This document shows, one piece after another, positions 18,075 through 18,779 of a stretch of DNA of 64,000 bases. This stretch comes from Escherichia coli (GTDB lineage Bacteria; Pseudomonadota; Gammaproteobacteria; Enterobacterales; Enterobacteriaceae). The DNA lies in NCBI RefSeq assembly GCF_024223415.1, contig NZ_CP100500.1; one strand, given 5' to 3'. A program made the translations under genes and the position numbers. The number at the start of each line of letters is the position of its first letter. Position 1 is the first letter of the stretch. Under the pieces are notes generated by a model that was not told the origin of the DNA, did no database searches, and was given only the letters and a program-made list of their open reading frames with translations.

Positions 18075-18195
18075 TTGACAACATCTGGTACGATTCGCCC
18101 GCAGCCATCACTGACTGCGGGCGAAAGTGTAAAGCAGGTGCCTTACCACTCTGACCTGACAACCGGATATGCGGGGATTACTCCCCGCACAACGG

Positions 18196-18348
18196 CTACT
18201 TCTTCGGTTCGTAAGCGAGAACAGCCCTGAACTCAATATTACGTTCCTTCACCGTAAACTCACACAGCGAGTCGCCGACCAGAAGCGTAAATCCCAGCAC
18301 CGTCAAACACAGCACTATGACTGCCACAAGGGCATATTTCGTCAGCAT
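18196..18348 (-). CDS. hokE: Hok-family type I toxin HokE (hok/sok locus)
   Basis: 50-aa peptide [50 protein letters not shown]; hairpins in the flanking leader and trailer are consistent with hok mRNA fold-back elements; the sok antisense RNA would lie on the + strand around 18400-18470 (not resolved). Confidence 0.8.
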
Positions 18349-18779
18349 GTTTATATTGCCTCCATGCGAAGAAGGGACTACCATCCAAATTGTTCAGGTT
18401 TGGAGTGGCAGCCCCAGGGTTGATAGAAATATCTCCTGGGGCTTCATCTTTCCAGACCTCAGAGTAAACCTGAAACCGGAAAGCTTCAGGCACCCGCCGT
18501 TATCTTACCCTTCCTCAACAAAATAGCTGTTTATTTATACAGTAAATCCTGTTTCGGACTTCTCACTCCTCATTTGATCAACTGAAGCTGAGCCCGTTTT
18601 TTCTGCATGCCTCAATCGTCAAAATTCTTCGCTACTAGCCAACCGTGCCATAACTTGTCACATTGCAAAAGTAGCCAAATTGCTTCAGGCACCATCACCA
18701 AAAAAAAGAAACATTCCAGAACTTCCGCATCTCGCCCAGCCGCTCCGACTTCTATACTGAATAGAAAACGCCAACATAA

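Follow-up and report, generated by a model that had tools for sequence, protein, structure and literature searches.

The window analysed here, a 64-kb stretch of Escherichia coli DNA, very probably carries an uninterrupted, single-copy chromosomal hokE/sokE type I toxin-antitoxin locus that is structurally complete and convergent with entD (Table 1). The locus is regarded as structurally complete because the 3' elements of the hokE transcript are still attached to the gene. That K-12 and wild-type strains differ at hokE has been known since 1999. The additions made in this study are the target hairpin of IS186, the mapping of two other hairpins to named elements, a LexA box, the missing mok start, and the population frequencies. 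Natural isolates such as this one retain the complete hokE/sokE RNA architecture, and this has little importance beyond correct annotation. Anyone asking whether chromosomal hok loci act, as in SOS-linked persistence, should use such an allele instead of K-12, which is unsuited to the question.

Table 1. Features of the hokE/sokE locus and its convergent neighbour; positions are those of the window
Feature	Position	Strand	Evidence
entD, phosphopantetheinyl transferase, convergent neighbour of hokE	17454..18074	+	Pfam 4PPT_N 66.7 bits, ACPS 54.5 bits
Terminal hairpin of hokE transcript, 14-bp stem, GUGA loop	18095..18124	-	-27.7 kcal/mol, z = -7.6, 0/200 shuffles as good
fbi-like element AGGCACCUGC	18134..18143	-	10 consecutive pairs with 18497..18488 in MFE and centroid folds
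ucb/dcb-like long-range helix, 3'-UTR segment pairing with leader 18409..18394	18146..18165	-	MFE and centroid folds
Post-stop hairpin UGCGGGGA-GUAA-UCCCCGCA, core GGGG-N6-CCCC, the empty IS186 target	18170..18189	-	-17.7 kcal/mol, z = -5.8
hokE CDS, 50 aa + stop	18196..18348	-	Pfam PF01848 HOK_GEF 33.3 bits (cut-off 22), profile positions 1-42 of 42
hokE mRNA leader	18340..18495	-	Rfam RF01794 87.1 bits (gathering score 59), E = 2.3e-19, model positions 1-157, full length
sokE promoter, TTGCCT (18356..18361), 17-nt spacer, TACCAT (18379..18384)	18356..18384	+	Read from sequence; identical to K-12
hokE Shine-Dalgarno (SD), GGAGG	18359..18363	-	Read from sequence
Only mok-like candidate, in-frame AUG 12 codons upstream of hokE (62-codon ORF)	18382..18384	-	AUG invariant in 9 alleles
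sokE antisense RNA, 60 nt	18392..18451	+	Transferred from K-12 b4835 (607733..607792) via indel-free alignment
tac-like 5' end of hokE mRNA, GCGGGUGCCU	18488..18497	-	Rfam model position 1 at 18495; pairs with fbi-like element
Putative hokE -10 hexamer, TAAGAT	18502..18507	-	Read from sequence, inferred
LexA (SOS) box TACTGTATAAATAAACAGCT	18525..18544	-	Overlaps -35 region of hokE promoter

The gene order in this part of the window is fepA (plus strand, ending at 17279), entD (plus strand), hokE (minus strand, 18348..18196), and ybdK (plus strand, 18789..19907; its product has a Pfam GCS2 match). The stop codons of entD (18072..18074) and hokE (18196..18198, minus strand) are separated by a spacer of 121 bp (18075..18195), close to the 120 bp given in an earlier note on this DNA. 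No IS-like or transposase ORF, inverted repeat, or IS end was found in 18075..18195; hence hokE adjoins entD without an insertion sequence, as that note had stated. The entD annotation is also present in strain SCU-316, which is 99.9% identical. Between fepA and entD, at 17289..17430, there are REP/BIME-like palindromic elements, with an Rfam ES036 match of 40.5 bits (gathering score 37.6) and an naRNA4 match of 38.4 bits that falls short of the gathering score, 59.5.

The earlier note had also placed a copy of IS186 at this junction in K-12, and the K-12 reference agreed. In MG1655 (NC_000913.3), the order is ybdK, sokE, hokE, IS186B (608007..609351, with insL2), and entD. IS186B is 1339 bp long, is bounded by CATAAG...CTTATG inverted repeats, and is flanked on both sides by the 10-bp direct repeat GGAGTAATCC, the target duplication. 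Its insertion point is 18 nt past the hokE stop. When the window was aligned with the MG1655 stretch by blastn, the alignment broke at window positions 18174..18185. After IS186B and one copy of the repeat were removed in silico, the K-12 sequence was colinear with window 18638..18060, and 18 differences were counted over 580 bp. GGGGAGTAATCCCC, the empty IS186 target, occurs once in the window, at 18173..18186, with no scar, and the equivalent of the K-12 target duplication is 18175..18184. The comparison confirms that K-12 carries the derived, IS-interrupted state at hokE.

The position of IS186 in K-12 is explained by a third strong hairpin, which was absent from the list of hairpins in the earlier note. 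It begins 6 nt past the hokE stop and runs from 18189 to 18170 in the direction of transcription, with the IS186 target in its loop. Work by SaiSree et al. in 2001 is said to have described the target preference of IS186 as a G-run, 3-6 nt, and a C-run, with a duplication of about 10 bp; the core of the post-stop hairpin fits this pattern. K-12 hokC/sokC (gef), a chromosomal paralogue, has a post-stop hairpin of the same type (GGGGATCACTCCCC). Like K-12 hokE, K-12 hokC carries an IS186 copy (IS186A) with a 10-bp duplication, in this case 19 nt past the stop. Unlike hokE, hokC has an annotated in-frame mokC, the start of which lies inside the SokC-complementary region.

The K-12 and window alleles are otherwise closely alike. 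K-12 hokE/sokE (b4415/b4835) is the same locus with the same neighbours, ybdK and entD; the LexA box has the same position, the sok promoters do not differ, SokE is one base apart (a substitution at 18396), and the toxins share 48 of 50 residues, the differences being V8A and R41K. The alleles differ in that IS186B, with its 10-bp duplication, detaches the 3' UTR elements in K-12, whereas the window has the empty target. In the passages of PMC12214031 and PMC2654758 that cite Pedersen and Gerdes (1999), hokA, hokC, and hokE of K-12 are given as inactivated by IS elements, and all five hok loci of that strain are counted as inactivated.

The leader of the hokE mRNA matched its Rfam family over the full length of the model. 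Transcription would start at 18495-18497, 7 nt downstream of the putative -10 hexamer. A generic scan of 18000..18800 for sigma-70 promoters and intrinsic terminators gave no match, so the promoter and terminator roles assigned here rest on homology and literature. The LexA box was the sole match to TACTGTATNNNTNNACAG in the 64-kb window, with 0.03 matches expected by chance. A LexA operator was defined as a 20-bp palindromic box, CTGT-N8-ACAG, over a promoter. The hokE box has this form and lies 29-48 nt upstream of the presumed hokE start; LexA binding and regulation at this locus are putative. The K-12 box begins with CACTG and the window box with TACTG (difference at 18544), which is closer to the consensus. 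K-12 hokE is listed among the SOS genes, its LexA box having a heterology index of 4.9, and AZT gave no induction of K-12 hokE in the 2024 SOS study (PMC11228462). Opposite the start and leader of hokE, the plus strand holds a 69-codon ORF (18317..18526). PGAP annotates this region in related genomes as 'hypothetical protein', often with a frameshift mark; the sok region has probably given rise to a false ORF call here.

The hokE mRNA from 18497 to 18092 (406 nt) had a predicted folding energy of -186.9 kcal/mol, against -133.8 ± 5.5 kcal/mol for shuffled sequences (z = -9.7). In the predicted folds, the tac-like 5' end pairs with the fbi-like element upstream of the terminal hairpin, so that the transcript folds back on itself. 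The energy of the tac-fbi duplex was -21.0 kcal/mol, and 25 of 2000 shuffled tails were as good; taken alone, the duplex is only modestly unlikely to arise by chance. Complementarity between the 5' and 3' ends at the same distance was also found in K-12 hokB, in hokC after in silico excision of IS186A, and in R1-like hok, where the pairing is GGCGCUU/AAGCGCC; the sequences differ among these loci. One pair in the ucb/dcb-like helix was U-A, U-G, or C-G among the hokE alleles, with no double compensatory change. In a covariation test of 9 hokE alleles no pair was altered on both sides, and the outcome did not differ from that of shuffles; because the alleles are 97% identical, this test is uninformative, not negative.

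The two hairpins that the earlier note had placed at 18096..18123 and 18410-18445 and read as hok mRNA folds were far stronger than chance (z = -7.6 and -4.1, respectively). They correspond to the terminal hairpin and to the Sok terminator/target stem, and that reading is retained. The terminal hairpin lies a few nucleotides past the fbi-like element, as does the terminator hairpin of R1-like hok. It has no U-tract on either strand, and its role in termination is therefore presumed. All of the 3' elements, namely the partner segment of the ucb/dcb-like helix, the fbi-like element, and the terminal hairpin, lie past the K-12 insertion point, and in K-12 they are 1.3 kb from hokE. A K-12 transcript running into IS186 failed to close when folded. 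When 3'-truncated mRNAs were folded, the 5' end was freed and the leader refolded. A convincing tac-ucb alternative helix such as that of R1 was not identified in the folds of the truncated mRNAs, and the activation step of the mRNA is thus one that we infer.

The sokE promoter scored 8 of 12 matches, and the threshold of the generic scan is 9. The same TTGCCT/TACCAT hexamers are listed for the RpoD (sigma-70) holoenzyme site at K-12 ybdK/sokE, found by genomic SELEX (PMC3946193). A disrupted sok promoter, which the earlier note had named as evidence against its reading, was absent, the promoter being identical to that of K-12. SokE was predicted to form a long hairpin (18410..18443) with an unpaired 5' tail of 11 nt on one side and a U-rich tail on the other (-24.6 kcal/mol, z = -3.0). 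The hairpin itself (-20.7 kcal/mol, z = -4.1) is both the SokE terminator and the Sok-target stem. As read from its sequence, sokE thus has the promoter and terminator of its own that are expected of a cis-encoded Sok gene, and its expression is predicted.

The hokE ORF encodes a small hydrophobic toxin of the Hok/Gef class and is intact, as the earlier note had claimed. Codon 46 is UAC (18213..18211), within a UACG motif (18213..18210) that is invariant in 9 hokE alleles. In K-12, hokE mRNA undergoes A-to-I editing that changes Tyr46 to Cys, at 40% (PMC12214031). In the closed fold, in the MFE and the centroid structure alike, the SD of hokE is buried: 18373..18357 pairs with 18215..18198, the 3' end of the CDS, which includes the edited UAC codon. 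This SD-sequestering helix (helix 8 of the fold) is invariant in the 9 alleles.

The start codon of mok is where hokE departs from its relatives. In hokB, hokC, and R1-like hok, the mok AUG lies 7-8 nt past a GAGGC SD, inside the Sok target. No start codon was present at the canonical mok position in 9 of 9 hokE alleles examined; the corresponding stretch of the window is 18400..18410 on the minus strand. The only candidate is the in-frame AUG at 18384, which lacks an obvious SD and falls outside the Sok-complementary region by 8 nt. Its position (18382..18384) overlaps, on the opposite strand, the sok -10 box. In R1, translation of hok is coupled to, and depends on, that of mok. An out-of-frame position of R1 mok was considered and rejected, as the mok AUG of the R1-like locus is in frame with hok, 57 nt upstream.

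The alternative that the locus is IS-free and yet an inert remnant is quite possible, if short of likely. RNAs would be made, but no toxin, as no canonical mok opens the hokE start, and the absence of the IS would then have no phenotype. The canonical mok AUG that is missing from all nine hokE alleles is present in hokB, hokC, and R1-like hok, and the burial of the hokE SD in an invariant helix points in the same direction. Against this, divergent alleles have kept the ORF with its UACG site, the SD, the tac and fbi elements, the LexA box, and the Sok promoter, which suggests purifying selection, and overexpression of the HokE coding sequence is toxic (bioRxiv 10.1101/2025.08.07.668861). Selection against an active toxin would also fit the repeated IS186 and IS150 events at the locus, but a hot spot for insertion would be enough to explain them. 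The reading in the earlier note is upheld in part, namely for the identity and intactness of the locus; its suggestion that the locus may be functional is not established. The RNA elements past the K-12 insertion point are all present, but the canonical mok start is missing. No post-segregational killing was seen with the chromosomal hokA, hokB, and hokC loci that are free of an IS (bioRxiv 10.1101/2025.08.07.668861), and a role of such loci in post-segregational killing was rejected on these results.

For the structurally complete hokE/sokE locus, the following mechanism is proposed. A weak promoter with an overlapping LexA box would give a hokE mRNA of about 400 nt. Its tac element (18497..18488) may pair with fbi (18134..18143), and the closed fold, the second long-range helix, and SD sequestration would together keep the full-length mRNA translationally inert. 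SokE, 60 nt in length and encoded on the opposite strand (18392..18451), is complementary to the leader and may block or destroy the mRNA once 3' trimming has opened it. Editing of codon 46 from UAC to UGC by TadA would supply the C-terminal cysteine required by the toxin. The promoter with its LexA box, the complementary SokE, and the editing site are sequence features, and the other steps and all of the roles are taken from the R1 hok/sok paradigm. In K-12, insertion of IS186 into the GGGG-N6-CCCC loop has cut off the long-range partner, fbi, and the terminal hairpin.

This mechanism draws on hok/sok of plasmid R1, the paradigm of type I toxin-antitoxin and post-segregational killing systems. 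Both loci encode a Hok/Gef toxin, have leaders that match RF01794 with comparable scores (87.2 bits for the R1-like plasmid hok and 87.1 bits for hokE), and sequester the hok SD. In each, the antisense RNA is of the Sok type, its hairpin being preceded by a 5' tail, and both have a tac-fbi closure followed by a terminal hairpin. Unlike R1 hok/sok, hokE is chromosomal, has a LexA box, and encodes a toxin that needs RNA editing for Cys46. It also has no AUG at the mok position, and its in-frame extension is 12 codons, compared with 19 in the R1-like locus.

The state of the site was surveyed in 5426 complete E. coli genomes, a genome being scored when the probe was covered at 80% or more. Many strains have two tandem hokE copies, so that the probe classes overlap and a genome may count in more than one of them: the empty target (141-bp probe) was found in 3646 genomes (67%), the K-12-type hokE-IS186 junction in 1741 (32%), the junction with IS186 in the opposite orientation in 1056 (19%), and the contiguous arrangement of entD, a single hokE, and ybdK (1201-bp probe) in 1082. 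The best match to the 1201-bp probe, at 99.9%, was the human commensal SCU-316. Most sequenced E. coli retain at least one uninterrupted hokE copy. The opposite orientation of IS186 was verified in strain AR_0061, and an ST131 isolate had IS186 behind each of its two hokE copies, each with its own duplication (GGAGCAATCC and GGAGTAATCC). IS186 has entered this type of site several times independently, because both orientations occur and both hokE copies as well as the hokC hairpin are occupied. The post-stop hairpin (equivalent of 18175..18184), together with the equivalent hairpin of K-12 hokC, is a recurrent insertion hot spot for IS186.

A more far-reaching proposal would be that the post-stop hairpin is a recurrent IS186 trap, that loss of fbi and the 3' UTR was selected to disarm the toxin, and that the window allele, with its near-consensus LexA box, is a working SOS-inducible membrane toxin module without a canonical mok; we hold this to be rather unlikely. 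The empty site could also be secondary, if a former IS186 had been excised precisely or removed through recombination with an allele that lacked it. The window copy looks like a mosaic between the O157 tandem copies, which makes recombination plausible. However, the target is single and without a scar, the empty site is the majority state among the genomes surveyed, and the two IS186 orientations and the two copies with their own duplications show repeated independent gains into an originally empty site. A secondary origin is therefore improbable, and the empty site is best taken as original, not as a product of excision. A collapsed repeat in the assembly is an extremely unlikely cause of the missing IS, as the 1082 complete genomes counted above have the same contiguous entD-hokE-ybdK arrangement at up to 99.9% identity, the junction has one clean 10-bp target copy, and nothing was found in support of an artefact.

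Further variation was seen around the locus. In many E. coli strains (O157:H7, O111, and others), a tandem hokE/sok pair lies between entD and ybdK; the window has a single copy, and the corresponding breakpoint is at 18563. The window copy is mosaic-like, in that 18273..18181 matches the ybdK-side copy of O157 and 18179..18088 the entD-side copy, with few informative sites. The pattern suggests that the hokE of the window may be a fusion of two tandem units by recombination. In ST131 isolate 46, IS150 is inserted in the Sok terminator/target hairpin (equivalent of 18415..18420). Strain AR_0061 has IS150 at the Sok hairpin and has lost the equivalent of 18423..18578, which contains the hokE promoter and the 5' leader. 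On the side of hokE that faces entD, strain 2547 and ST131 carry an island that encodes two SDR oxidoreductases and a sugar ABC transporter. This island joins at the edge of the terminal hairpin, with its breakpoint at window position 18095.
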